From Candidatus Enterousia sp. (GTDB taxonomy: Bacteria; Pseudomonadota; Alphaproteobacteria; Rs-D84), in contig JAZQRR010000027.1 of NCBI GenBank assembly GCA_045629645.1, forward strand, positions 25,968-89,967: a stretch of DNA of 64,000 nt. The letters run 5' to 3'. Position 1 is the first letter of the stretch; the number at the start of each line of letters is the position of its first letter. The notes beneath the pieces are model-generated. The model was not told where the DNA came from. It saw nothing but the letters and a program-made list of their open reading frames with translations, and did not search any database. The position numbers and the translations under genes were made by a program. Below are positions 1,892 through 62,125 of the stretch, one piece after another.

Positions 1892-4318
1892 TTAATCCAT
1901 TGCGCCTTGTTTTTTCAGGTATTCATTAACAAAATTATTACCATAAATTTTATATAATTCTTCGGCCAACAAAACAGAAGAACGTCCAGATTCAAACAAT
2001 CTTAACATATTCCCCAGTCCGCCCAATTCTGTATTTAAAATAACAGATTCATTATTTACAGGTCTGGACAACAGTAATGCACGTTTTAAATTAGGATACG
2101 CCTTGCCTTGAATAAAGGCCATTTCCAACGGATTTAAATTCCAATGCGCATAATCATTTACCTCGGCTGCTGGATTTCTAAAGAATAATATTGTCTGTGC
2201 CTGACCACGAACAACGTCACCAATCCCCAGTTTATCCAGAATATTTGCGCGCTGAAACGCTGCCATATACGCCTGACGATTTTTTCTACCTTCTTGTAAA
2301 CCAGTAATAAAACTGTCACGGAACATTTTATTTTCCAGCATTGGTGCAGTTTCGTCAATCATAATCAGCGATGGATTTCCACCGGCCACCGTCGTATTGT
2401 TAATTCTGTGTAAGATATAAGAAATAACTGCTGGCGCTAAAACTTCATCTTGTAAAATATCTGTAAAATCAAACGTTGTTAATCTGGATTGTAAATCCAA
2501 AGTATCAGTTATTTCATTAAACATATCACCATACTGTAATGGGTCTATCCACTTTTTTAACGCGGGTCGCATATTTCCTGTGGAAGAAAAACAACTTTCC
2601 CACAAATTTTTCAACAATCTGTCTTTATCGGATAAATAATCAAAATTAACAGATACAGCACGTGCAATTTCATCGGCAGATTCAACATCATTCTGCCCAG
2701 AAATAATTGCGAACCAGCGTCTTAAAAACGCACGATTTGCGGCACTGTCTGGCATTTTTAGTGGATTTAAGTGTGTCAAGAAAGACTGTGCCATTGGGTC
2801 TGTATTTTTTTCTTTCCCCTGCATAGTAATATACTTACCGCCCACCGCCATTGTAAATATTTCCGCGCCTTTGTTTCTATCAAAGAAAAAAGCTTTTAAC
2901 TTAGGATGTCTTAAACTTTGCGCAATCAAGAACGAGAACAAAGTTGTTTTACCACCACCTGTTGGACCGATTGTTAAAGTATGTCCCACCGCGGCCGGCG
3001 CATCAGAAACATGGAATTGGAACATATACGGTGTACCTTGGGCAGTTGGGAAAACAACCAATGGTCCTGGCCCCCAATCTGAATTTTCAACACCACGTGG
3101 CTGTGTTGACATTGGAATACTGACGGCAGCTGTCTTGGATAACAATTTAAAACTGCGTGGAAAAACATCAAACCCTGGAATCTGTGCGAACCAAGACACC
3201 TTGGCTGCGAACGTTTCTACAATAGGAGAAACCCCGAACGAAGCGGAAATTTTCTTAAAATCATCTATTGATTTTTGTAATTCTTTTTCAGAATCACCAT
3301 ACAGAACAAATAAAGGATAATAGTTAACCATACTCTGATTTCCAGAAACATTTTCATCCATAACAGATTCTGCGGCACTAATTTGTTCTTCGGTTGATTT
3401 TTGTTTTTCATCTGCGGTTGAACGTCTTTGTCGCAAAGTTGTTTCAATATCGGCCTGCCCCATGATATGAAAAGCGTTCATTGTAACCATTTCACATTGA
3501 ATTGTTGATATAGTATCAAAAAATTCTTCATCCAAATAATCCGGAGAAGTTTTAAAAGACAACATTGCAGAATATTGTTTTTGTGCGCCACTGATATACT
3601 TCACCCAACCATCTTTCAAAAATTCCACATCATCAACAGTTGTTAAACTTGCGATATCATTATCTGCTGTTTTTGGTTCTGGTTTTGAAACAGGAGATAA
3701 AATTCTGCCGAAAAATTTCGCCATATTATCTGTTGTTTTATTTTTCAACACTTGTGGTTTATAAGCAGCCAACATAGATTCAATATAATTTCCATATTTA
3801 TTTAATTTTGCACGTGCATCAACACCAGAAACGGACATAACAATATAATAACTATTTGTAAAAATTTTTAATCCTTGTCCTTGCCATTTATCATATATTT
3901 TCTGCAATGTTGGCTGATTAAATTCATATTTTGTCTGTTCTGCTATTTCATCGCGCACCATAAAGAATCGCAAAATAACCCCAGTATCACGAATTTGATT
4001 AAATAATTGTGCACGCAAATCCAAGAATTTTTCACGTGTTTGATTATCTTGCATACTGGTTTGAACCCCTGCCACGCGATAAACACGTAACAAAGTACCA
4101 TCTGTCAACGACATAGAATTATCATCAAAAACTGTATCAAAAGGTAAAAAACTTGAATATTTAGCATATCCAAATTTTGGGAAAATTTTCTTGCCCAGCA
4201 CAGGCACATACAGCATCAGCATAATAAAAACAAACAAAACAACCATCACCATGACGGTCAAAGTAATTGGGAATCCACTTCCTGCAAAATAATCAAAAAA
4301 ATCATGTACATTTGTCAT
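1892..4318 (-). CDS. virB4: Type IV secretion ATPase VirB4/TrbE
   Basis: 808 aa with an N-terminal TM segment and the Walker A motif GPTGGGKTT. Length and layout are typical of VirB4. It overlaps virB3 by 4 nt (ATGA). Confidence 0.9.
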   Translation of the reverse strand: MTNVHDFFDYFAGSGFPITLTVMVMVVLFVFIMLMLYVPVLGKKIFPKFGYAKYSSFLPFDTVFDDNSMSLTDGTLLRVYRVAGVQTSMQDNQTREKFLDLRAQLFNQIRDTGVILRFFMVRDEIAEQTKYEFNQPTLQKIYDKWQGQGLKIFTNSYYIVMSVSGVDARAKLNKYGNYIESMLAAYKPQVLKNKTTDNMAKFFGRILSPVSKPEPKTADNDIASLTTVDDVEFLKDGWVKYISGAQKQYSAMLSFKTSPDYLDEEFFDTISTIQCEMVTMNAFHIMGQADIETTLRQRRSTADEKQKSTEEQISAAESVMDENVSGNQSMVNYYPLFVLYGDSEKELQKSIDDFKKISASFGVSPIVETFAAKVSWFAQIPGFDVFPRSFKLLSKTAAVSIPMSTQPRGVENSDWGPGPLVVFPTAQGTPYMFQFHVSDAPAAVGHTLTIGPTGGGKTTLFSFLIAQSLRHPKLKAFFFDRNKGAEIFTMAVGGKYITMQGKEKNTDPMAQSFLTHLNPLKMPDSAANRAFLRRWFAIISGQNDVESADEIARAVSVNFDYLSDKDRLLKNLWESCFSSTGNMRPALKKWIDPLQYGDMFNEITDTLDLQSRLTTFDFTDILQDEVLAPAVISYILHRINNTTVAGGNPSLIMIDETAPMLENKMFRDSFITGLQEGRKNRQAYMAAFQRANILDKLGIGDVVRGQAQTILFFRNPAAEVNDYAHWNLNPLEMAFIQGKAYPNLKRALLLSRPVNNESVILNTELGGLGNMLRLFESGRSSVLLAEELYKIYGNNFVNEYLKKQGAMD

Positions 4319-15728: not shown

Positions 15729-15932
15729 ATGCCAAAATTAAAAACAAAGTCGTACTTAAAAAAACGTGCGTCTATGACTGCAACTGGTAAAATCCGTGTT
15801 GCACGTAACTCTCACAAGAAACTGTTGCGCAAGAAATCTGCTCGTGCAAACAAGGCAGGTGCAAAGCCACAGTATTTGAACGATAACATGGTTGGACAGG
15901 CAAAGATTCTGGCCCCATATGGTTTGAAATAA
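15729..15932 (+). CDS. rpmI: 50S ribosomal protein L35
   Basis: 67 aa, beginning MPKLKTKSYLKKRASMTATGKI. Confidence 0.95.
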   Translation: MPKLKTKSYLKKRASMTATGKIRVARNSHKKLLRKKSARANKAGAKPQYLNDNMVGQAKILAPYGLK

Positions 15933-15950
15933 GCAAGGGGGTAACAGGTC

Positions 15951-16319
15951 ATGGCAAGAGTAAAACGCGGAACAACCGTTAAACAAAAACATAATAAAAT
16001 ATTGGCGCGCGCCAAAGGTTATTTGGGCCGTCATCATTCAACATATCGCGCAGCACGTGAAAAAACAGAAAAAGCAGGACAGTATGCATATCGCGATAGA
16101 CGCGTTAAAAAACGCGAATTTCGTGGTTTGTGGATTGTTCGTATCAATGCTGCTGTACGCGCAAATGGTATGACATACAGCCAATTTATGAATGGTTTAA
16201 AGAAAGCAGGCGTTGCATTGGATCGCAAGGTCTTGGCCGAAATGGCATATGCAGGCGATGCAAACTTCACCAAATTGGTTGATACAGCAAAACGATTTAT
16301 TTCTGCCGAAGCTAAATAA
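15951..16319 (+). CDS. rplT: 50S ribosomal protein L20
   Basis: 122 aa, beginning [18 protein letters not shown]. Confidence 0.95.
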
Positions 16320-16353
16320 TACCTTGTCGGCAGGTATCTGTTTTGTAATAATA

Positions 16354-16386
16354 AAGGCCGTCAAATGACGGCTTTTATATTTTTAT
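16354..16386 (+). terminator. Rho-independent terminator after rplT
   Basis: GCCGTC-AAAT-GACGGC hairpin followed by a T-rich tract. Confidence 0.6.
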
Positions 16387-16401
16387 AATTAATCTGGGGT
16401 A

Positions 16402-17355
16402 ATGATTATGCAAGAACAAATAAAAAATATAAACACACTGGAAGAATTGCAAGTCTTGTACACAGCAACGTTCGGTAAAAATGGTACAATGACTGCGCGT
16501 TTAAAAGAAATGAAAAATCTGGATAATGATGCGCGTGCGGCATTAAATACAGAAAACCAAATGTTACGTGAATTGTTCAAAGTGCGTCAGTCGGAAATTG
16601 AAAATGCGGTATTAATGGCATCTTTGGAAAAGCAAAAATTAGATGTGTCATTAAATCCAATCGCAGAAAACAATGGAACTTTGCATCCTTTGACACAAAG
16701 TTTGTCTGATATTGCAGGAATACTTGAATCATTTGGTTACAAAATGTACACGGGCCCAGAAATAGAAGATGATTGGCATAATTTTACTGCATTAAACACC
16801 CCAATGCATCACCCTGCCCGCGATATGCAAGACAGTTTCTTTTTAACAAATGGTAATGTTTTACGTACACAAACATCTGCAATTCAAATTCGTGCGATGG
16901 AACGTGATGGTGTTCCAATTAAAATGTTTGGTGTTGGTACAACTTATCGCAAGGAAATGGATGCAACACACAGTCCTATGTTCGGTCAAATCGAAGGTTT
17001 ATATGTTGATAAAAATGTTACTATGTCGGATTTATTGGCAGATGTACGTGCATTTTTATCAAAATTCTTTGGGATTGAAAATATTGAATTACGTATTCGT
17101 CCTTCGTACTTTCCATTTACAGACCCAAGTATTGAAATTGATATGAAGTGGAAAAATGAAAAATGGTTGGAATTGATGGGCGCAGGTATGGTTCATCCAA
17201 ATGTATTACGAAATTGCGGTATAAATCCTGATGAATACCAAGGTTTTGCGTTTGGTTTTGGTTGGGACAGATTGGCAATGTTAAAGTATGGTCTGAACGA
17301 TATTCGTCAGTTTTATGACAACGATGTTCGTTGGTTACGCAGCGCAGGATTTTAA
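16402..17355 (+). CDS. pheS: Phenylalanine--tRNA ligase alpha subunit
   Basis: 317 aa with a class II aaRS core (HPARDMQDSFF, FRKE..DATHSPMFGQIEG). The start could instead be the ATG at 16408. Confidence 0.95.
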   Translation: MIMQEQIKNINTLEELQVLYTATFGKNGTMTARLKEMKNLDNDARAALNTENQMLRELFKVRQSEIENAVLMASLEKQKLDVSLNPIAENNGTLHPLTQSLSDIAGILESFGYKMYTGPEIEDDWHNFTALNTPMHHPARDMQDSFFLTNGNVLRTQTSAIQIRAMERDGVPIKMFGVGTTYRKEMDATHSPMFGQIEGLYVDKNVTMSDLLADVRAFLSKFFGIENIELRIRPSYFPFTDPSIEIDMKWKNEKWLELMGAGMVHPNVLRNCGINPDEYQGFAFGFGWDRLAMLKYGLNDIRQFYDNDVRWLRSAGF

Positions 17356-17370
17356 TACGGGGGTACAGTT

Positions 17371-19674
17371 ATGAAATGGACACTTGATTGGTTACAAGAA
17401 TATTTAAAAACAGACGCATCTGCACAAGATATATCTGATACATTGACACGCATTGGTTTGGAAATAGAAGATATGCAATCTCCGATTTCACCTGTTGCCG
17501 CAAAAATTGTTGAATGCAAGGCGCATGAAAACAGCGACCATTTGCATGTATTGATGGTTGACGATGGTTCTGGTAAATTGCGTCAGATTGTATGCGGTGC
17601 ACCAAACGTACGTGTTGGATTGGTTTCTGCATTGGCGGTACCCGGTTGTATTATCCAAGGGCATGAAATAACATCTGGTAAATTACGTGGTGTTTTATCT
17701 GACGGCATGATGTGTTCTGAACGTGAATTGGGTTTGGGTGATGATCACAATGGCATCATTGAATTGTCAGAAGATACAGTAATTGGTTCTCCTGTTCTTG
17801 AATCCAAGACAGTTTTTGATGCGGGTATTACACCGAACAGACCGGATTATTTATCTGTTCGTGGTATTGCGCGTGATTTGTCTGCGGCTGGTTTGGGTGA
17901 ATATGTTGCGTCATCAGACCCAGAATTCAAGACGATATCTGGCGCACGTTCTGTTAACTTGGAAACAGAAAAATGCCGTGCGTATAAGATGTTGGAAATT
18001 CACGGCATAACAGTCGCCCCCAGCAATCAAAAGATTGCATCACGTTTGCGTGCAATTGGCATTAATCCGAAAAATGCACCGGTGGATGCAACAAATTATA
18101 TCTGTTACGATATGGCCCAGCCGATGCATTGTTTTGATGCCGATGAAATAGACGGTGATATAACAGTACGTATGGCAAACAATGGTGAAAAGTTTACAGA
18201 CTTGTTCGGTAATGAACATGAATTACTTGATACAGATATTGTTATTGCAGATAACTGTGGTATTTTAGCATTGGCGGGTGTTATTGGTGGTGCGCGTGGT
18301 TCAACCACAGAAAACACAAAAAATATTATTTTAGAATCTGCAAATTTTGACAGTGTATGTGTTCGTAAAACATCAAAACGTTTGGGGATATCAACGGATG
18401 CATCATACAGATATGAACGTGGTATTGATCCAACAATAAATGGCATAGCAGCAATGTGCGCAGCAGATATAATTATGTCTGCGTGTGGTGGTGAAATTGT
18501 TTGTGGTGTTGCTGCGGGTTCAGATACACCGACAAATATTGCAATAAAATATACACCTGATTATTTTGTAAAGAAAACAGGTGTTGAAATGGCACCAGAC
18601 ACTCAGCGTGATATTTTAAATGCGCTGGGATATACCATTAAAGATTCAAAAGATGTATGGACTGTTACACCACACTCTTCACGCGTGGATGTTTCTATTC
18701 CGGAAACAGTTGTTGCAGATTTATTGCGTATATATGGATACGATAATATCATGGGTGTTGGTTCGCACACGATTGGAGATATGCAAACTCATGATGGTCG
18801 TGAAATGTATATCAAGAATCTGTTGGTATCACGTGGTTTAAATGAATGTCGTTCATTTGGTTTTGGAAACAGTCAAATTGAAAAAATACTGTCTGACAAA
18901 CCAATAATATCAGTTGCAAATCCAATTACTGCTGATTATGACACGATGCGAAATGGACTGTTGTCTTGTTTATTGACGGCGGTATCAAATAATGAAAAAC
19001 GTGGTTTTTCTGATTTAAGTTTGTTTGAATACGGAACAGTATTTGACAGTGATAATGTTGCAGACCAGCATACGCAATTATGTATTGTTCGCAGTGGTAC
19101 AACATCTCCAAAACATTGGACAGGTCGTAATCGCAACATAGATATCTATGATATCAAATCGGATTTGATTGCATTGATGCAAGGACAAAGATTTACTGTT
19201 TCCACAGAAAATGTTCCAATGTGGGCACATCCATACAGATATGGCGCATTGTACCAAGGCAAAAAGAAAATTGCAGAATTTGGTGAATTGCATCCATCTG
19301 TTGCCAAGAAATTGCGTATAAAAACAAATGTTGTGATTGCGATTGTTGATAATGTTGATAATCTGCCGGCAAAACGTGGCAGCAAACAGCCTGTAATATC
19401 AGAATATCAACCAATAACACGTGATTTTGCGTTTATTGTTGATGTTGATACCCATGCTGATAAATTAACATCTGTTGCGCAAAGCACAGACAGGCGTATA
19501 TCAAATGTTGTTGTGTTTGACGCGTTTGATATGAATAACGGCAAAAAGTCAATTGCATTTACAATAACAATTCAACCAACAGAAAATATGTCAGATTCAG
19601 ATTTACAGGACTTACAATCTGCTGTTATTTCTGCGGTTGAAAAGAAATGTAATGCAACGATACGCGACAAATAA
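17371..19674 (+). CDS. pheT: Phenylalanine--tRNA ligase beta subunit
   Basis: 767 aa with an N-terminal tRNA-binding domain (KAHENSDHLHVLMVDDG) and the B3/4 and B5 regions. Confidence 0.95.
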   Translation: MKWTLDWLQEYLKTDASAQDISDTLTRIGLEIEDMQSPISPVAAKIVECKAHENSDHLHVLMVDDGSGKLRQIVCGAPNVRVGLVSALAVPGCIIQGHEITSGKLRGVLSDGMMCSERELGLGDDHNGIIELSEDTVIGSPVLESKTVFDAGITPNRPDYLSVRGIARDLSAAGLGEYVASSDPEFKTISGARSVNLETEKCRAYKMLEIHGITVAPSNQKIASRLRAIGINPKNAPVDATNYICYDMAQPMHCFDADEIDGDITVRMANNGEKFTDLFGNEHELLDTDIVIADNCGILALAGVIGGARGSTTENTKNIILESANFDSVCVRKTSKRLGISTDASYRYERGIDPTINGIAAMCAADIIMSACGGEIVCGVAAGSDTPTNIAIKYTPDYFVKKTGVEMAPDTQRDILNALGYTIKDSKDVWTVTPHSSRVDVSIPETVVADLLRIYGYDNIMGVGSHTIGDMQTHDGREMYIKNLLVSRGLNECRSFGFGNSQIEKILSDKPIISVANPITADYDTMRNGLLSCLLTAVSNNEKRGFSDLSLFEYGTVFDSDNVADQHTQLCIVRSGTTSPKHWTGRNRNIDIYDIKSDLIALMQGQRFTVSTENVPMWAHPYRYGALYQGKKKIAEFGELHPSVAKKLRIKTNVVIAIVDNVDNLPAKRGSKQPVISEYQPITRDFAFIVDVDTHADKLTSVAQSTDRRISNVVVFDAFDMNNGKKSIAFTITIQPTENMSDSDLQDLQSAVISAVEKKCNATIRDK

Positions 19675-23629: not shown

Positions 23630-23649
23630 AAAAAAAGGCGCCACGCGCC
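23630..23649 (-). terminator. Intrinsic terminator inside the ileS leader (candidate attenuator)
   Basis: The minus strand reads GGCGC-GTG-GCGCC followed by 7 T, ending 26 nt upstream of the ileS ATG. Confidence 0.6.
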
Positions 23650-23677
23650 CCAGCCACCGCAGAAGCGCAGTTGCCGT

Positions 23678-23710
23678 TTATTTAATAATAATTATTGTTT
23701 GTGTTTTCAT
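23678..23710 (-). CDS. Candidate ileS leader peptide MKTQTIIIIK
   Basis: A 10-codon mini-ORF with four consecutive Ile codons (ATA ATT ATT ATT). It lies between a promoter-like element and the leader terminator. Confidence 0.5.
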   Translation of the reverse strand: MKTQTIIIIK

Positions 23711-23718
23711 CACGATAG

Positions 23719-25107: not shown

Positions 25108-26751
25108 TTATGCCTTTATCTTGCGCATTACGACCATAATACCTGCGGGTGTCATACCAGATATTCGTGACAGGTCTGCGATATTTTCTGGGCGTGTTGC
25201 AGTCAGTTTTTCAATCAATTCATTTGTTAACCCAGGCAACCCAGTATATTGAAAATCGTGTGGTATTTTTAAATCTGCATCACGTTTGTATGCGGCGATT
25301 TCACGTTCATTTCGTGCAATATATCCAGCATAAAATTTATCGTTTTGTTCGATAATATCTTTTTTGATATTGTATATTTTTTCAAACCATTGTTGTGTGC
25401 ACAGAGCTAAATCAACCCCGATTTTTCCCAGTCGCGCAATCGCATTATCTGCGCGCAGACTTAATCTGTATTCTGCGCGTGATGTAAACATACGATAAGG
25501 TTCATCAACCCCCAATGTTGTGATATCGTCAATCAAGACACCAATCATGGCATTTGTTCGGTCCAGATTCAGTGTTTCTGTTCCCAATGCGTATGCTGCC
25601 GCATTTGCCCCCGCGACCAGACCTTGGGCGGCGGCTTCTTCGTATCCCGAAGTGCCGTTTATTTGTCCTGCAAAGAACATATAAGGTAAATCTTTGCTTT
25701 GCAGTTTATCGTTCAGTGCGCGCGCATCAATTGCGTCGTATTCTATTGCATATCCATATCGAACAATTTCTGCGTTTTCCAGTCCAGGTATTGAACGAAT
25801 CCATTTGTCTTGCACGTCTGCGCCAAAGCTGGTTGATATCCCATTTGGATAAATTAAATCACTGTTCCAACCTTCGGGTTCCAAGAACACATGATGAGAA
25901 GAATGTTCAGGGAAACGCATAACTTTGTCTTCCAGACTTGGGCAATATCGTGGTCCTGTGCCACGAATATCGCCGTTATACATCGGTGCATTTTTTATAT
26001 TTTCACGAATAATATCGTGTGTTTCCTGTGTTGTATGTGTTATATAACAAACGCTGTCATATTTGTTATTTTTATCACCATCTGCGAACCAATCATGTGG
26101 CGTATCACCGGGTTGAATTTCACACACAGAAAAGTCAATAGATTCACGTTTGATACGTGCAGGCGTTCCTGTCTTTAATCGCAGTATTTTAAATCCTGCC
26201 TTTTGCAAAACGCCCGATATATTTTTGTCGTTTTCTTGGTATGTTCCATCGTCTTGCAGGCGTCCGGATGGGATTTTTTCATTACCACGTGTAACAACGC
26301 CTTCCAAAAAGGTTCCTGTTGTCAGAACAATTGCGTCTGCACAATATTTGTCATTGATGATTTTGTTTTCTATATCAAAAGTTTTAACTGCTTCAAACAC
26401 GACATCTAGATTATTGTATTCGCCCAGAATATCAACAACGGCATTATGGTATAAATTTCTGTCTATTTGCGCGCGCAATGCCTGTGTTGCGGCACCGTGT
26501 GTTGCGTTCAGTGTGCGCCAGTGTATCCCAGAACGGTCTGCTGCGCGTCCCATAACCCCACCCAGTGCAGTTATTTCTGCAACCATTTGTGATTTCCCGG
26601 GGCCACCAATACTTGGGTTGCAAGACAATGCGCCCAAATCAGATTCTGCCTGTGTTAACAACAAAGTTGTTGCGCCACGACGTGCCGCTGCTGCTGCCGC
26701 TTCTACACCGGCATGTCCACCACCAATAACAATGACATTATACTTTTGCAT
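25108..26751 (-). CDS. mnmG: tRNA uridine 5-carboxymethylaminomethyl modification enzyme MnmG (short form)
   Basis: 547 aa with the FAD-binding N-terminus VIVIGGGHAGVEAA and a GidA-type core. Confidence 0.9.
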   Translation of the reverse strand: MQKYNVIVIGGGHAGVEAAAAAARRGATTLLLTQAESDLGALSCNPSIGGPGKSQMVAEITALGGVMGRAADRSGIHWRTLNATHGAATQALRAQIDRNLYHNAVVDILGEYNNLDVVFEAVKTFDIENKIINDKYCADAIVLTTGTFLEGVVTRGNEKIPSGRLQDDGTYQENDKNISGVLQKAGFKILRLKTGTPARIKRESIDFSVCEIQPGDTPHDWFADGDKNNKYDSVCYITHTTQETHDIIRENIKNAPMYNGDIRGTGPRYCPSLEDKVMRFPEHSSHHVFLEPEGWNSDLIYPNGISTSFGADVQDKWIRSIPGLENAEIVRYGYAIEYDAIDARALNDKLQSKDLPYMFFAGQINGTSGYEEAAAQGLVAGANAAAYALGTETLNLDRTNAMIGVLIDDITTLGVDEPYRMFTSRAEYRLSLRADNAIARLGKIGVDLALCTQQWFEKIYNIKKDIIEQNDKFYAGYIARNEREIAAYKRDADLKIPHDFQYTGLPGLTNELIEKLTATRPENIADLSRISGMTPAGIMVVMRKIKA

Positions 26752-28930: not shown

Positions 28931-29218
28931 TTACATTTGATAAGATGCTTCACGTGCTTTTTGTATCAGGCGCAACGCGTCATTTATTTTTTTTGTTGTC
29001 AGTTCAATATTTAATACGGGTTTTTTGCATTTATAATGATATCTTGCATTTGAAAAGATATGCGTGATACCACGAACAACCGTGCATCGTTTTGCATTTC
29101 TGCAATTCTTTTTACAGTTTGCGCATGATATAACAGTACTTAGAACTGTTTCTGGATTTTTTTTGTTTATTTCATACGTTCCAACAACGCGAATTACCCG
29201 TATTGAATTATTTATCAT
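28931..29218 (-). CDS. Hypothetical small Cys-rich protein
   Basis: 95 aa. Its ATG overlaps the metG stop (ATGA). It contains CANCKKNCRNAKRC, and I recognise no family. Confidence 0.4.
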   Translation of the reverse strand: MINNSIRVIRVVGTYEINKKNPETVLSTVISCANCKKNCRNAKRCTVVRGITHIFSNARYHYKCKKPVLNIELTTKKINDALRLIQKAREASYQM

Positions 29219-31203
29219 TTGTATTCATCCCCGATATTATAAGATGCGTCTAATTCAATAATTTGTGTGTCATCGTCATTTACGCCGATTTCTGCGCCAC
29301 TGCACATCATGCCGAACGATTCTATACCTGCAACAGTGCGCTGGGCCAATGGTTTTTTTACACCTGGTAATTTTGCGCCAACCGGTGCCAAAACCCCACG
29401 TAAACCAACACGTACATTTGGTGCGCCACATACGATTTGAATATTTTCGTCGCTGCCCGTGTTCACAGACAGAATATGCAAATTATCGCGTTCTGGGTGA
29501 TTTTTTACATCAACAATTTCTGCAACGGTCAGTTTTGGTGAATTATCGACTTGTTTTGGTGTGTGCTTTTCGGTCAGTTCTGCAATCTTGGCATCATCGA
29601 TACGATTGAACAAGTTTTCCGGCACGATAAATTCATCACCATCGTTAATACGATGTTCGTATGATTTTGGCCAAGACAAATCATGTGCATTTACAAAAAC
29701 ATTTTGCATTTTTTCTGCGGCACTTGGGATTATTGGTGCAGACACGCGTGCAAACAAATCAATCATTTGCATACATTCATTTAATACAGCCCCTGCCCCC
29801 GCTATATCGCCATTTTTAATCATTGCCCATGGTTCCATTTTGGTCATATATTCATTTGCAATTGCGTATAAACCGCGCAGTGCCGCGATTGATTTACGGA
29901 ATTCACATGCTTCCAATGCAGATGTTAATTCAGATATTTTTTCATTGATTTGTGATTCCAGTTCTGGATTTTTTTCACCAGCGTTTGGAACGTTGTTACC
30001 AAAATTTTTCTGGGTTAATTTGCAAACGCGTGATACGAAATTTCCAAGCATTCCGTTCAGGTCTTTATTTACAATATCTGCGAAACGTGCAACTGTAAAA
30101 TCTGTATCATCTGTTTCTGGTGCGCTTGCCATCAGTGCATAACGCCAGCAATCCGCGGGTGCATCATTGATTGCCTCGTTCAAGAATATTCCGTTACCTG
30201 TTGATTTTGAAATCTTGGCACCATTAAAATTCAAGAAATTAAATCCCTTTAATATATCAACTGTTTTCCAGTTGTCGTTCATCGCCAATTCTTGGGCGGG
30301 GAAAAATATAGAATGGAACGATACATTATCTTTGGCCATAAATTGGGCATATTTTACATCGTCACCACCATGCCACCAATCGGCCCAGTTTTCATTTGCC
30401 GCCTGAGATATTGAAACATATCCCCATGGCGCATCGAACCAAACATAGAATACTTTGTTTTCATAACCTGGTTTATTAACAGGAATCCCCCATTTTAAAT
30501 CGCGTGTGATGGGGCTGTCGTGCAAACCTTCTTCCAGCCATTTATTTGCGATTGCCAATGCGGTTTTTGACCATCCGACGCGTGAATCAATCCATGCGCG
30601 TAATTTATCCTGCATGGCGCTGGTTTTGAAATACAAGTGTTTTGTTTCGCGCATTTCAACAGGAGATGTTGGATCGACTGCACTGTGTGGGTTTATTAAT
30701 TGTTCTGGTTCCAGTGTTGCGCCACATTTTCCGCATTCGTTACCATATGCTCCGTCAAAACCGCATTTTGGGCAAGTGCCGATAACATATCGGTCTGCCA
30801 GAAACATATTTTCGTTAATTGAATATGGTTGCATAGATGCTTTTTCAACAATCATATTTTCTTGTTCCAGACGCAAGAATAACGCTTGGATTAAATCCTG
30901 GTGTTTTTGTGTATGTGTACGGCCATATATATCAAATGACAAATTAAAGTCGCGAACAGATTGTTCGTGTGCCTGACGGTATTTATCAACATATTCTTCC
31001 ACGGGCATATTTTCTTTTCTGGCACCGACTTCGCTGGTTGTACCGTGTTCATCAGCCCCGCAAACATATAAAACATCACGCCCCATTGCGCGACAAAAGC
31101 GCGCATAAACATCCGATGGTAACCAGCATCCAACCAAATGTCCAATATGCAAATTGTTGTTAACATACGGTAATGCAGATGTAATTAAATATTTTTTTGC
31201 CAT
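29215..31203 (-). CDS. metG: Methionine--tRNA ligase with a C-terminal tRNA-binding (Trbp111/EMAP-like) domain
   Basis: 662 aa with PYVNNNLHIGHL (HIGH), KISKS, a CPKCG...CGKCG zinc knuckle, and a C-terminus similar to the PheT N-terminal tRNA-binding domain. Confidence 0.95.
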   Translation of the reverse strand: MAKKYLITSALPYVNNNLHIGHLVGCWLPSDVYARFCRAMGRDVLYVCGADEHGTTSEVGARKENMPVEEYVDKYRQAHEQSVRDFNLSFDIYGRTHTQKHQDLIQALFLRLEQENMIVEKASMQPYSINENMFLADRYVIGTCPKCGFDGAYGNECGKCGATLEPEQLINPHSAVDPTSPVEMRETKHLYFKTSAMQDKLRAWIDSRVGWSKTALAIANKWLEEGLHDSPITRDLKWGIPVNKPGYENKVFYVWFDAPWGYVSISQAANENWADWWHGGDDVKYAQFMAKDNVSFHSIFFPAQELAMNDNWKTVDILKGFNFLNFNGAKISKSTGNGIFLNEAINDAPADCWRYALMASAPETDDTDFTVARFADIVNKDLNGMLGNFVSRVCKLTQKNFGNNVPNAGEKNPELESQINEKISELTSALEACEFRKSIAALRGLYAIANEYMTKMEPWAMIKNGDIAGAGAVLNECMQMIDLFARVSAPIIPSAAEKMQNVFVNAHDLSWPKSYEHRINDGDEFIVPENLFNRIDDAKIAELTEKHTPKQVDNSPKLTVAEIVDVKNHPERDNLHILSVNTGSDENIQIVCGAPNVRVGLRGVLAPVGAKLPGVKKPLAQRTVAGIESFGMMCSGAEIGVNDDDTQIIELDASYNIGDEYK

Positions 31204-31228
31204 TTTTACTGTGTCCTTTGCCTGTGTT

Positions 31229-31257
31229 TAAAAAAAATAGACGCCAACGGGGGCGTC
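31229..31257 (-). terminator. Intrinsic terminator inside the metG leader (candidate attenuator)
   Basis: The minus strand reads GACGCC-CCCGTT-GGCGTC followed by TATTTTTTTT, ending about 25 nt upstream of the metG ATG. Confidence 0.6.
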
Positions 31258-31285
31258 CACCGATTCCCGTTGATTATTTCTATGA

Positions 31286-31309
31286 TTAAATTTGCATTCG
31301 TATCATCAT
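31286..31309 (-). CDS. Candidate metG leader peptide MMIRMQI
   Basis: A 7-codon mini-ORF, ATG ATG ATA CGA ATG CAA ATT TAA, with 3 Met in 7 codons. An AGGA lies 11 nt upstream. Confidence 0.45.
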   Translation of the reverse strand: MMIRMQI

Positions 31310-31335
31310 AATTAATTTTATCCTGTAATTAAAAG

Positions 31336-31455
31336 TGGTGGGTGGTATTGGACTGGTCTTGCGACCGCACAGGCGCAAATCGGCGGTGCCGACCGCGATA
31401 CCCCCGTATCGCTTTTGCTGGTTGTCGAACCAACACTGTTGGTTCTTCGTCCAAT
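31336..31455 (-). repeat. Split and inverted partial copies of the tRNA-Val T-arm and 3' end, enclosing a 70-nt GC-rich insert
   Basis: 31336-31354 is identical to 31482-31500 (19 nt: CCA, acceptor 3' strand and T-stem). 31425-31434 is identical to 31500-31509 (T-stem 5' strand plus T-loop). 31438-31455 is an inverted T-arm-like copy. 31355-31424 is conspicuously GC-rich and contains hairpins. Confidence 0.8.
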
Positions 31456-31481
31456 AAAAACGACATCCTGTGTTTTTATTA

Positions 31482-31558
31482 TGGTGGGTGGTATTGGACT
31501 CGAACCAACGACCTTTACGATGTCAACGTAACGCTCTAACCAACTGAGCTAACCACCC
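31482..31558 (-). tRNA. tRNA-Val (anticodon GAC)
   Basis: I folded the cloverleaf by hand. Acceptor GGGTGGT/ACCACCC, anticodon stem TTACG/CGTAA with loop TTGACAT, T arm GTTGG-TTCGAGT-CCAAT, and an encoded CCA. Confidence 0.9.
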
Positions 31559-31647
31559 ATAAAGCCAAGTGATTATAACAAAGAAAAATCTAAATGCAAA
31601 TAATAAATATGTGCGCGCGTTATTTAGATTTTTTTGGCTTATATTTG

Positions 31648-59855: not shown

Positions 59856-59883
59856 AAAAATCCCGCGTTTTGCGGGTTTTTTT
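59854..59883. terminator. Bidirectional rho-independent terminator
   Basis: CCCGC-GTTTT-GCGGG hairpin flanked by A and T runs, between the convergent rpsO and virD4 genes. Confidence 0.75.
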
Positions 59884-62125
59884 ATATTTTTAGTTCACGT
59901 ATTTGTTTGGTTTTTGCATCATATACTTTTGGTGTACCTTCGTATCCCAGTGCATTATGATGCTTTGGTATCATGTATTCTGGAATTGGTGATGCACGTT
60001 CCATTTTTACTTTATCGTTAATCGCAATTTGTATTTTATTCTTGCGCAAGAAGTGCCATTCGCCATCCGCTTCGATTGGTCTGTTGTAATGTCCTTGGTA
60101 CAGAACGATTTGTCGTGCGTCTGGCAATGTCATCAAATCCATAGGCGAGAACAAGTCTTCTTCTTTATCTACTTCGATATCTTTTCCGTCTGGTCCTTTT
60201 TCCTTTTTCTTGGTTTTTTTCTTGCCAATCATACGTGTGAACTTTTCTGCGGTTGCATAATCGTTAACGCGCAATATGATTTTTGCAGCAGTATTTGCGA
60301 TGATTGTTTCAGCAGCTTTATCGCCATACTTGTCTTGAATCTGACTGATATCCTGACCCACAATCAGATAAGAAACCTTTTGTCCACGACCAACGGCAGG
60401 ACCTTGGATTATTGCTTCCAGTTTATTCATTGTTGGCATTTCGTCCAATACAAACAGCGCAGGATAAGGTCCCAATTTTTGACCGTGATTTATCTTTTCT
60501 GGTGGGTTTGCAATCAAGAACTTTGACAACAGTTCAATAAACATACTGGTAATTGGCTTAAACGCAGGCGCATCAGCAACGTTCATTGACAGATATATTG
60601 TAATAGGTTTAATTTTTCCGTCTGTTGGATCCACCATACCGCGCATATCGCTGAAATGTATATCTGAATGTCTGGTGTGTTTGTTCACCGCAGGATGTCT
60701 GAAAATGTTCAATCCTGCGTTCATTGTTGACATAATAGAACCACGTTCCTTGTCAGGTGTGTTTGCCAAGTTAATCAGCGCGGAAATTGCATCACTGTCG
60801 TACGAATACAGGCGCGCTTCATTTATAGCTCCGTTCAAAAAGTCTTTCATTGGGTCAGCCATCATAACCATCTGGTCGCCTTGACGTTTTCTTTCTTCGA
60901 TATCATTTGCGACTTTGATTTGACCTTCGACGTACCACGCCAAGAACATTGGAATTGATGCTTCTGCGCCATGCCATTCTGTTGGCAGACCGCCCCATGT
61001 ACCAACGTGTACATAATTATCAATATTCAATTCGCCACGTTGCAGCGCAGACATTGCAGCGTATGCGTTCGGATCTGATGACATTGTCATATAATAATCC
61101 ATCAGTACGACTGCGTCTTGTTCGTCAAAAGTGCTGTTTTTTAATCTGTTATAGAAATAATCGTTTGCCTTGGCGCGTTCCACCTTGGATACAATAAAGT
61201 TAACAAAGCCTGTTAATGCCGCACGTGCAGTATTTGACCAGTGTGGATCTTTGGCGTTTTCTTCAATGATAGTATTAACGATAACTTGGATGTAAGTACT
61301 GCGTTCTTCAAGTGTTTCTGGCAAGTTTTCAGGAGATAATGGATTCCATGCTGGATAATATATTCCGTTTTCTGGTTCGTCAGGTGCGGCCCAGTTTAAT
61401 ATAAACACTGGTCCAACTGTTGCGCGATATCCAGAAGTGTCCCTGTCCAATTCTGGTTTTGGGTCATTTATAATCATTGAAACGTTGTCGCAACCTAAGA
61501 TAGTAGGAATAACGACGCCCTGTGTTTTACCAGTACCAGCAGGCGCCAACAACAATGCGGACAAGCAAGAATCCATTTTCAAAGGTTTGTCTTTGAAATA
61601 TCCCAAAACCATCATAAAACCACCGAATAAACCTTCGTTGTTTTTGTGGTCTGCCTTCATTTTTTTGATGTCACCAACAGTTGCCTTGCGCGAAGATTTT
61701 TCATCAAATTTATCTTTGGAATGTGGGTTAAATTCGTCAGTCATTGTTGCGTCTGACAGCAGATAGTATGCAATAACTGGTAATAATGGCGTGATGCATG
61801 CAATATCAGGACGTAAAATACAGCGCACCAACCAGTCCGGAATCTGGGCCAAAACAGATACACCAAATGTGTTAAGCGCTTGTTGCAGGTAAATCCATAT
61901 CCACTGTTTCGTTGCAGGGGACCAGCCGTATCGCCATATTTGTTCAACAGGAAATGCGCATGCGACCAAAAAAGCCGCGATTAACCATACTATAATAGTC
62001 CATCTGATTGACCAGAATTCGCGCGCCAAAGGTGTTTTTTCGTGTTCTTTATACGCATCAGATTTGAATATGCCGATGCCTTTGCCCTTGCCGGACATAG
62101 ATAAAAAGTTGAATTTAACTGCCAT
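59882..62125 (-). CDS. virD4: Type IV secretion coupling protein VirD4/TraG
   Basis: 747 aa with N-terminal TM segments, the Walker A motif LAPAGTGKTQGVVIPT and Walker B-like LFVLDEMP. Confidence 0.9.
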   Translation of the reverse strand: MAVKFNFLSMSGKGKGIGIFKSDAYKEHEKTPLAREFWSIRWTIIVWLIAAFLVACAFPVEQIWRYGWSPATKQWIWIYLQQALNTFGVSVLAQIPDWLVRCILRPDIACITPLLPVIAYYLLSDATMTDEFNPHSKDKFDEKSSRKATVGDIKKMKADHKNNEGLFGGFMMVLGYFKDKPLKMDSCLSALLLAPAGTGKTQGVVIPTILGCDNVSMIINDPKPELDRDTSGYRATVGPVFILNWAAPDEPENGIYYPAWNPLSPENLPETLEERSTYIQVIVNTIIEENAKDPHWSNTARAALTGFVNFIVSKVERAKANDYFYNRLKNSTFDEQDAVVLMDYYMTMSSDPNAYAAMSALQRGELNIDNYVHVGTWGGLPTEWHGAEASIPMFLAWYVEGQIKVANDIEERKRQGDQMVMMADPMKDFLNGAINEARLYSYDSDAISALINLANTPDKERGSIMSTMNAGLNIFRHPAVNKHTRHSDIHFSDMRGMVDPTDGKIKPITIYLSMNVADAPAFKPITSMFIELLSKFLIANPPEKINHGQKLGPYPALFVLDEMPTMNKLEAIIQGPAVGRGQKVSYLIVGQDISQIQDKYGDKAAETIIANTAAKIILRVNDYATAEKFTRMIGKKKTKKKEKGPDGKDIEVDKEEDLFSPMDLMTLPDARQIVLYQGHYNRPIEADGEWHFLRKNKIQIAINDKVKMERASPIPEYMIPKHHNALGYEGTPKVYDAKTKQIRELKI

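Follow-up and report, generated by a model that had tools for sequence, protein, structure and literature searches.

A conditional terminator and putative methionine leader-peptide attenuator upstream of metG in Candidatus Enterousia

Transcription of metG, the methionyl-tRNA synthetase (MetRS) gene of Candidatus Enterousia sp., appears to be gated by a conditional terminator whose leader RNA carries a short open reading frame (mini-ORF). Comparative alignment and RNA folding support the conditional terminator well, and the mini-ORF looks translated, with its frame and length under selection. We lean towards reading this element as a ribosome-mediated (leader-peptide) transcription attenuator that would respond to Met-tRNA supply, and it is probably a previously undescribed form of feedback control of MetRS. 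The DNA analyzed, hereafter the window, is a 64,000-nucleotide (nt) stretch of contig JAZQRR010000027.1 (assembly GCA_045629645.1, forward-strand positions 25,968 to 89,967). Candidatus Enterousia belongs to the alphaproteobacterial order Rs-D84 and comprises uncultured gut bacteria with genomes of less than 1 Mb that lack amino-acid biosynthesis (PMC12306168). A preliminary description drawn from the letters of the window had proposed a Met-rich leader peptide with an antiterminator/terminator switch before metG. On re-reading, all of the leader parts it had placed on the minus strand were borne out, and they stand among the features below.

The terminator switch and its mini-ORF

31321..31324, minus strand: AGGA resembling a Shine-Dalgarno (SD) motif, 11 nt upstream of the mini-ORF (sequence read)
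31286..31309, minus strand: mini-ORF ATG ATG ATA CGA ATG CAA ATT TAA, encoding MMIRMQI and a stop (sequence read and alignment)
31282..31288, minus strand: UAAUCAU, the window form of the conserved UAAUCUU that overlaps the stop codon (alignment)
31262..31273, minus strand: U-CAACGGG-AAUC, the antiterminator 5' arm (31273-31266) plus the conserved AAUC (alignment)
31245..31251, minus strand: CCCGUUG, the antiterminator 3' arm, made of the invariant loop and first 3'-arm base of the terminator (alignment)
31236..31261, minus strand: intrinsic terminator hairpin, core GACGCC-CCCGUU-GGCGUC at 31257-31240, extendable to 10 pairs
31230..31237, minus strand: U8 tract of the terminator (sequence read)
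31214..31218, minus strand: AAGGA, ribosome-binding site of metG (sequence read)
29215..31203, minus strand: metG, methionyl-tRNA synthetase of 662 amino acids, the gene under putative control (ATG at 31203)

The anatomy of the element was worked out from an alignment of 46 distinct leader versions. Its consensus runs ATG-CGA-ATG-YAN-NNN-stop, (A)AUCUU, a spacer of 13-17 nt, CAACGGGAAUC, a hairpin whose loop, CCCCGUU, never varies, and a closing U-run. The spacer between stop and CAACGGG is A-rich and variable in sequence; 8-13 variable nt separate the arm from the terminator, and 20-35 nt, including the metG ribosome-binding site, separate the terminator from metG. In the window, CAACGGG (31272-31266) lies 13 nt past the mini-ORF stop and the metG ATG 26 nt downstream of the U-run.

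The terminator, a G+C-rich stem followed by U7-9, is real as judged by covariation: 97% of alignment cells are paired and 20 carry double changes, a result that none of 500 shuffles reached. Compensatory changes in the stem took CG to UA seven times, AU to GC three times and GC to AU twice. The loop is invariant despite the varying stem, and is the exact complement of the upstream CAACGGG. This antiterminator 5' arm is CAACGGG in 39 leaders, UAACGGG in four, UGACGGG in two and CAGCGGG in one, and AAUC comes next in 40 of the 46. The variants (C to U, A to G, CA to UG) all retain wobble pairing with CCCGUUG, and the pairing is possible in every sequence; two-sided covariation is absent from the antiterminator because its 3' partner is invariant. 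Since the helix occupies the terminator loop and the first base of the 3' arm, it and the terminator are mutually exclusive, as the preliminary description had held.

Folding energetics, to which that description had pointed as a check, placed the two structures on nearly equal terms. Once CCCGUUG has emerged, CAACGGG:CCCGUUG is the minimum-energy fold in 31/31 folded leaders. The antiterminator helix amounts to about -10.3 kcal/mol versus -10 to -14 kcal/mol for the terminator in most leaders, and the median energy difference between the two at the decision point is about 0. The folding z-score of the whole leader is unremarkable (-1.17). A promoter scan of the interval between terminator and metG found no promoter-like site, and metG therefore depends on read-through.

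Other arrangements of these segments were tried and rejected. For a full pseudoknot, established geometry leaves no linker between the second strands of both helices. The invariant AUGCGAAUG can pair with CGUUGGCGU, in the terminator loop plus 3' arm, in 94% of cells, with a G-G mismatch and no covariation, and by our estimate the match is not beyond chance over all registers. A local hairpin around CAACGGG (AUUC-AACGG-GAAU) is not conserved, being present in only about half of the leaders. Finally, the inverted repeat CAACGGG...CCCGTTG was considered as a DNA operator, and its spacing of 12-17 nt speaks against a rigid dimer site.

The case for translation lies in the mini-ORF itself. The conserved ORF has five codons, M-R-M-[Q/Y/H]-x, and starts with ATG-CGA-ATG in every version. 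In the window the core is M-R-M-Q-I (CGA-ATG-CAA-ATT-TAA with ATG in front), and only the window species has the MMI prefix, in which an ATG and an ATA are added. The epithet "Met-rich" overstates the case: the internal Met codon AUG3 is invariant, but the conserved five-codon core has just one internal Met. Codon 2 is CGA in 46/46 leaders, a rare codon that makes up 32 of the window's 573 Arg codons. Codon 4 is YAN (CAA 27, TAC 12, CAC 5, CAG 1, TAT 1), codon 5 is variable and A-rich, and a stop occupies codon 6 in 46/46 leaders (TAA 45, TGA 1). The stop keeps its position where AAUCUU has slid by 1-2 nt (locus L057, UGA-AUCUU; L020, UAA-AAUCUU). The third base of codon 4 is A or G in 0/13 leaders with T as first base versus 28/33 with C (Fisher p = 8e-8, phylogeny uncorrected), and on the MetG tree CAC lineages adjoin TAC clades, as would be expected of a stop-avoiding path from CAA through CAC to TAC.

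All 5' extensions of the mini-ORF are in frame (ATG, ATG-ATA, ATG-AAT), with additional in-frame ATGs in at least five separate lineages. Signals for initiation are also present. An SD-like motif lies 5-18 nt upstream in 30 of the 37 leaders without an ATG-abutting promoter, against a background of 7.6%. Eight leaders have a conserved promoter whose TATAAT stands 6-7 nt before the ATG, so that their mini-ORF is leaderless. A second ORF, read from an NUG after the SD-like GGGAA, was rejected; the NUG comes mostly from terminator stem extension and the frames differ among leaders.

Distribution, losses and genomic context

Comparison of metG upstream regions, likewise proposed beforehand, showed that 42 of 58 loci of the Enterousia clade (MetG 63-85% identical) carry the element immediately before metG, as do seven metagenome contigs. 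The latter came from a metagenome scan for the core that did not require the ORF: seven of its eight matches are the full element before metG, and the scan found no copy without the ORF and none before another gene. The eighth match (L080, 1894-1930) lies on an unrelated G+C-rich contig, where a terminator that forms a perfect palindrome, CCAACGGGAAUC-ucgc-GAUUCCCGUUGG, comes after a tRNA gene and fitted the core search pattern by chance. We also built a covariance model from 38 leaders and ran it on 40 sources (333 kb), comprising leader-less loci, distant relatives, ileS loci, the whole window and four positive controls. Matches, all before metG, came from five of these sources: the four positive controls, which carry the leader, and the window itself. 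No cryptic copies appeared in the leader-less loci, distant relatives or ileS loci. Judged by these comparisons, the metG leader element is not a chance pattern.

On the MetG tree the leader occurs across the full breadth of the Enterousia clade and is ancestral there; its losses number at least eight and provide natural comparison lineages. With the sole exception of L053, lineages without the leader have a conserved promoter, TATAAATATTGATTTATnCAAAATATGnTTTATAAT, next to metG in its place, ~40-75 nt before the gene (L001, L002, L013, L014, L016, L017, L021, L024, L031, L036, L040, L048 and L055). The same promoter stands in front of the leader in L003, L023, L026, L027, L030, L037 and L038. 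Its spacer holds an imperfect inverted repeat. The promoter may carry an operator for some regulator, or may have been exchanged by recombination. The deep-branching L053 (~2930-3000) lacks both mini-ORF and antiterminator, and a plain terminator (GACGCCCCAGAUUCGGGCGU plus U7) stands between its tRNA-Val and metG. This arrangement may have been inherited from the ancestor, or it may have arisen by deletion.

Upstream of the leader in the window lie the following features, among them a tRNA gene that the preliminary description did not mention.

31336..31481, minus strand: 146-bp species-specific piece, outside the conserved element and missing from most relatives
31482..31558, minus strand: tRNA-Val(GAC) gene
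31572..31600, minus strand: sigma-70-like promoter of tRNA-Val, TTTGCA-17-TATAAT with TG (promoter scan)

The tRNA-Val promoter is the sole promoter-like site upstream of the metG leader in this window, and its motif also precedes tRNA-Val in relatives L021 and L053. In most relatives tRNA-Val is directly upstream of the leader. The tRNA-Val gene, leader and metG share one strand and are probably co-transcribed. The 146-bp piece looks like an integration (att) scar or a pseudo-tRNA remnant: an exact 19-bp direct repeat joins its positions 31336-31354 to 31482-31500 at the 3' end of tRNA-Val. Within the piece the T-arm 10-mer is repeated (31425-31434), and the plus strand holds a terminator-like hairpin (31395-31412). 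In L039 the tRNA 3'-end fragment is present without the tRNA itself. Elsewhere in the window (1892-4318 and 59882-62125) are type IV secretion genes for a VirB4/TrbE-like protein and a VirD4/TraG-like coupling protein, which fit the symbiotic or parasitic lifestyle proposed for Enterousia.

How the switch might be set

In the attenuator we propose, transcription would start at the tRNA-Val promoter or, in some relatives, at a dedicated promoter that leaves the mini-ORF leaderless, and polymerase would reach the intrinsic terminator 26 nt before metG. CAACGGG, made ~15 nt earlier, would pair with the loop CCCGUUG and give read-through into metG; because it emerges before the terminator, it can pre-empt it. 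The position of a ribosome on the translated five-codon ORF (fMet-Arg-Met-x-x-stop; seven codons in the window), 13-17 nt upstream of CAACGGG, would then select the helix. With ample Met-tRNA(Met) the ribosome would stand at the stop codon and termination would prevail. With charged tRNA(Met) scarce, a stall at the internal AUG or failed initiation would lead to the antiterminator and to more MetRS. The coupling might consist of steric crowding of the terminating ribosome, the nascent helix and polymerase. We infer the role of the ribosome as effector, the direction of the response and the physical coupling; the narrow spacer range together with selection on ORF length suggests that it matters where the terminating ribosome stands. 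A Met-tRNA attenuator is the simplest reading because the element occurs only before metG, its AUGs are invariant, and the same clade has an ileS leader with Ile codons.

Several observations weigh against it. The preliminary description had a ribosome at the stop masking CAACGGG, and this step did not hold up. Footprints and toeprints show that a ribosome terminating with its A site on the stop codon extends ~10 nt downstream of that codon. The spacer, at 13-17 nt, is longer, and the antiterminator 5' arm begins 12-17 nt past the stop, 3-7 nt outside the reach of the terminating ribosome. In constrained folding, moreover, masking the bases under a ribosome at Met3 or at the stop left the fold balance unchanged. 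Distances and masking together mean that the coupling cannot be simple masking of CAACGGG. No stable 1:2 hairpin (anti-antiterminator) was found in the leaders, so that read-through should be the default of naked RNA, in contrast to classical attenuators. There is one internal regulatory codon only. The model also does not account for the invariance of the rare CGA in all 46 leaders, for the conservation of AAUCUU and AAUC, or for the bias against U in the third position of codon 4. The best candidate for an anti-antiterminator, AAUCUU:GGGAAU, was rejected for its weak energy and its single compensatory case (L005, AAAUUU:GGGUUU), and 85 of 500 shuffles matched its covariation; it forms a perfect 6-7 bp in the basal clade only (L041, L043 and L072). 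As read from sequence, the leader has the structural parts of a leader-peptide attenuator, namely ORF, terminator and exclusive antiterminator; it does not have the classical ribosome geometry.

A more specific version is possible, and we hold it only tentatively: that the leader is a minimal Met-tRNA sensor with a new mechanism. Its five-codon, sometimes leaderless ORF would report initiator and elongator Met-tRNA through the start and internal AUGs, and its antiterminator would be controlled without masking or a 1:2 hairpin, via crowding or an AAUCUU/GGGAAUC partner. It would be one of a set of aminoacyl-tRNA synthetase (aaRS) attenuators in a genome of less than 1 Mb without amino-acid biosynthesis.

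The same misfits could instead point to a translated mini-ORF that sets the switch while reporting another signal, or that works with reversed polarity, which we consider improbable. The signal might be general ribosome or initiation capacity, with metG coupled by growth rate to the tRNA-Val promoter, or the decoding of the rare CGA. The invariance and rarity of CGA, the single internal AUG, and a CAACGGG left uncovered in both ribosome positions would all suit such a signal; restriction of the element to metG, the invariance of both AUGs with repeated origin of additional in-frame AUGs, and the use of cognate codons by the sister ileS leader would not. Under reversed polarity, a ribosome on the stop would melt a weak AAUCUU:GGGAAU hairpin and so bring about antitermination. 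AAUCUU overlaps the stop and is partly complementary to GGGAAU, perfectly so in the basal clade, but this 1:2 helix is too weak beside an antiterminator of -10 kcal/mol, lacks statistical support, and would imply positive feedback on an essential enzyme.

We give about as little credence to a trans-acting protein (e.g. MetRS), a tRNA or a small ligand that binds single-stranded AUGCGAAUG, AAUCUU and CAACGGGAAUC, with the reading frame incidental or secondary. Such a factor would explain why synonymous positions (CGA, the third base of codon 4) and non-coding motifs are conserved beyond the needs of a ribosome model, why AAUC adjoins the pairing segment yet lies outside the helix, and why the geometry does not fit ribosome masking. 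It would leave unexplained why ORF frame and length are under selection and why the ORF begins either behind an SD or leaderless. With about 30 conserved nt, most of them unpaired, the element moreover offers too few for a ligand pocket. Searches for known RNA families were negative. Across the whole window at gathering thresholds, the 4227 Rfam families returned tRNAs only, and at E <= 10 the segment 31150-31650 gave only noise matches. Among these families no covariance model for S-adenosylmethionine (SAM) or Met riboswitches (SAM-II, SAM-V, SAM-SAH and others) matched, and neither did the T-box, at gathering threshold or at E <= 10. By eye, there was no T-box sequence, no discriminator-matched UGGN bulge, the only UGG being the UGGC within the terminator 3' arm, and no conserved CAU anticodon-loop mimic; nor did inspection of the alignment show the conserved CAU-bearing loop of a thrS-type tRNA-mimic operator. 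The covariance-model search likewise showed no Met/SAM regulon sharing the element; an organism without amino-acid biosynthesis (PMC12306168) has no such regulon to share it.

Least probable of all, and quite unlikely in our view, is that the hairpin is the plain terminator of the tRNA-Val unit, with metG served by constitutive leaky read-through and the motifs by tRNA 3' processing, RNA stability or a small RNA: tRNA-Val does lie directly upstream at most loci, L053 has only tRNA-Val, a plain terminator and metG, and the terminated RNA (A/U-rich stretch, hairpin, U-tail) resembles a typical small RNA, but lineages in which a dedicated promoter stands in for the tRNA gene, with the ATG at the transcription start, retain the full element, an invariant loop perfectly complementary to an invariant upstream heptamer would be pointless in a plain terminator, and the ORF frame is under selection. 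Collectively, frame selection, restriction to metG, the lack of a riboswitch or T-box match, and retention behind a dedicated promoter argue against these rivals of the Met-tRNA attenuator.

Related leaders and known systems

Two further aaRS loci lie in the window. The leader region of ileS (23632-23711, minus strand, upstream of ileS at 23603-20580) contains a leader ORF, MKTQTIIIIK, at 23711-23679. Its pattern M-K-x-x-T-I-I-I-I-K is conserved in five relatives (L087-L091, ~1380-1500), with ATA ATT ATT ATT invariant, and is followed by a long antiterminator that starts 8-9 nt past the stop and then by a terminator. The mini-ORF is either leaderless behind its own promoter or directly behind tRNA-Thr(CGT). 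From its sequence this leader reads unambiguously as a classical-looking Ile leader-peptide attenuator. The claim that the metG leader matches it holds only in outline. Both occur in the same clade, combine a cognate mini-ORF with an antiterminator/terminator pair before an aaRS gene, and come in the same two layouts, adjoining a tRNA or leaderless. In detail they differ: the ileS ORF has ten codons with four consecutive invariant Ile codons, a terminating ribosome can reach its antiterminator, a 1:2 hairpin is plausible in it, and the two leaders share no sequence similarity. For pheST (16402-19674, plus strand), the earlier view that an equivalent is lacking stands, with no Phe-rich leader ORF found in 15730-16320 or 16340-16400. 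These genes lie downstream of rpmI-rplT and a hairpin with a T-run.

We know of no report of methionine as the amino acid sensed by a leader-peptide attenuator, and our literature search found no description of the metG leader or of a Met-codon attenuator. If our reading is true, this would be the first methionine case of leader-peptide attenuation, and a special one, since the sensed codon is also the start codon. At five codons and ~75 nt, it would also indicate the size to which such a device can shrink, and would test the need for a 1:2 hairpin. A gut symbiont with a genome of less than 1 Mb (PMC12306168) would then retain RNA-level feedback on at least two aaRS genes, each tied to a tRNA gene promoter, and such leaders can inform which regulation outlasts genome reduction.

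Among aaRS genes, pheST has a known leader-peptide attenuator, and such attenuators have been predicted for trpS and leuS of Streptomyces (PMC1262725). Like the metG leader, those of E. coli pheST (pheM) and of trpS and leuS join an aaRS gene to a short ORF with cognate codons and to a terminator with a competing antiterminator. The metG leader departs from them in having five codons rather than ~14 or more, one internal regulatory codon with a start codon that is itself Met, no stable 1:2 hairpin, an antiterminator arm 13-17 nt past the stop, and, often, co-transcription with a tRNA or a leaderless start. The trp operon attenuator of enterobacteria (trpL) likewise sets a terminator against an earlier antiterminator, with the outcome decided by the leader ribosome. 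It has four segments, a 1:2 pause hairpin and termination as the default without translation, whereas three segments are evident in the metG leader and the naked RNA would default to the antiterminator.

In mycobacteria, leaderless polycysteine short ORFs act as Cys-responsive attenuators (bioRxiv 10.1101/834739). They resemble the metG leader in being very short, starting at the 5' end and reporting one amino acid, and differ from it in phylum and in the amino acid reported. These ORFs are said to act on downstream expression without a terminator/antiterminator pair. The metS/metG T-boxes of Firmicutes, finally, also place a terminator/antiterminator decision before a MetRS gene and respond to tRNA(Met) charging. 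They do so by binding the tRNA directly with a structured leader of ~200 nt, compared with the ~75 nt of the Enterousia metG leader.

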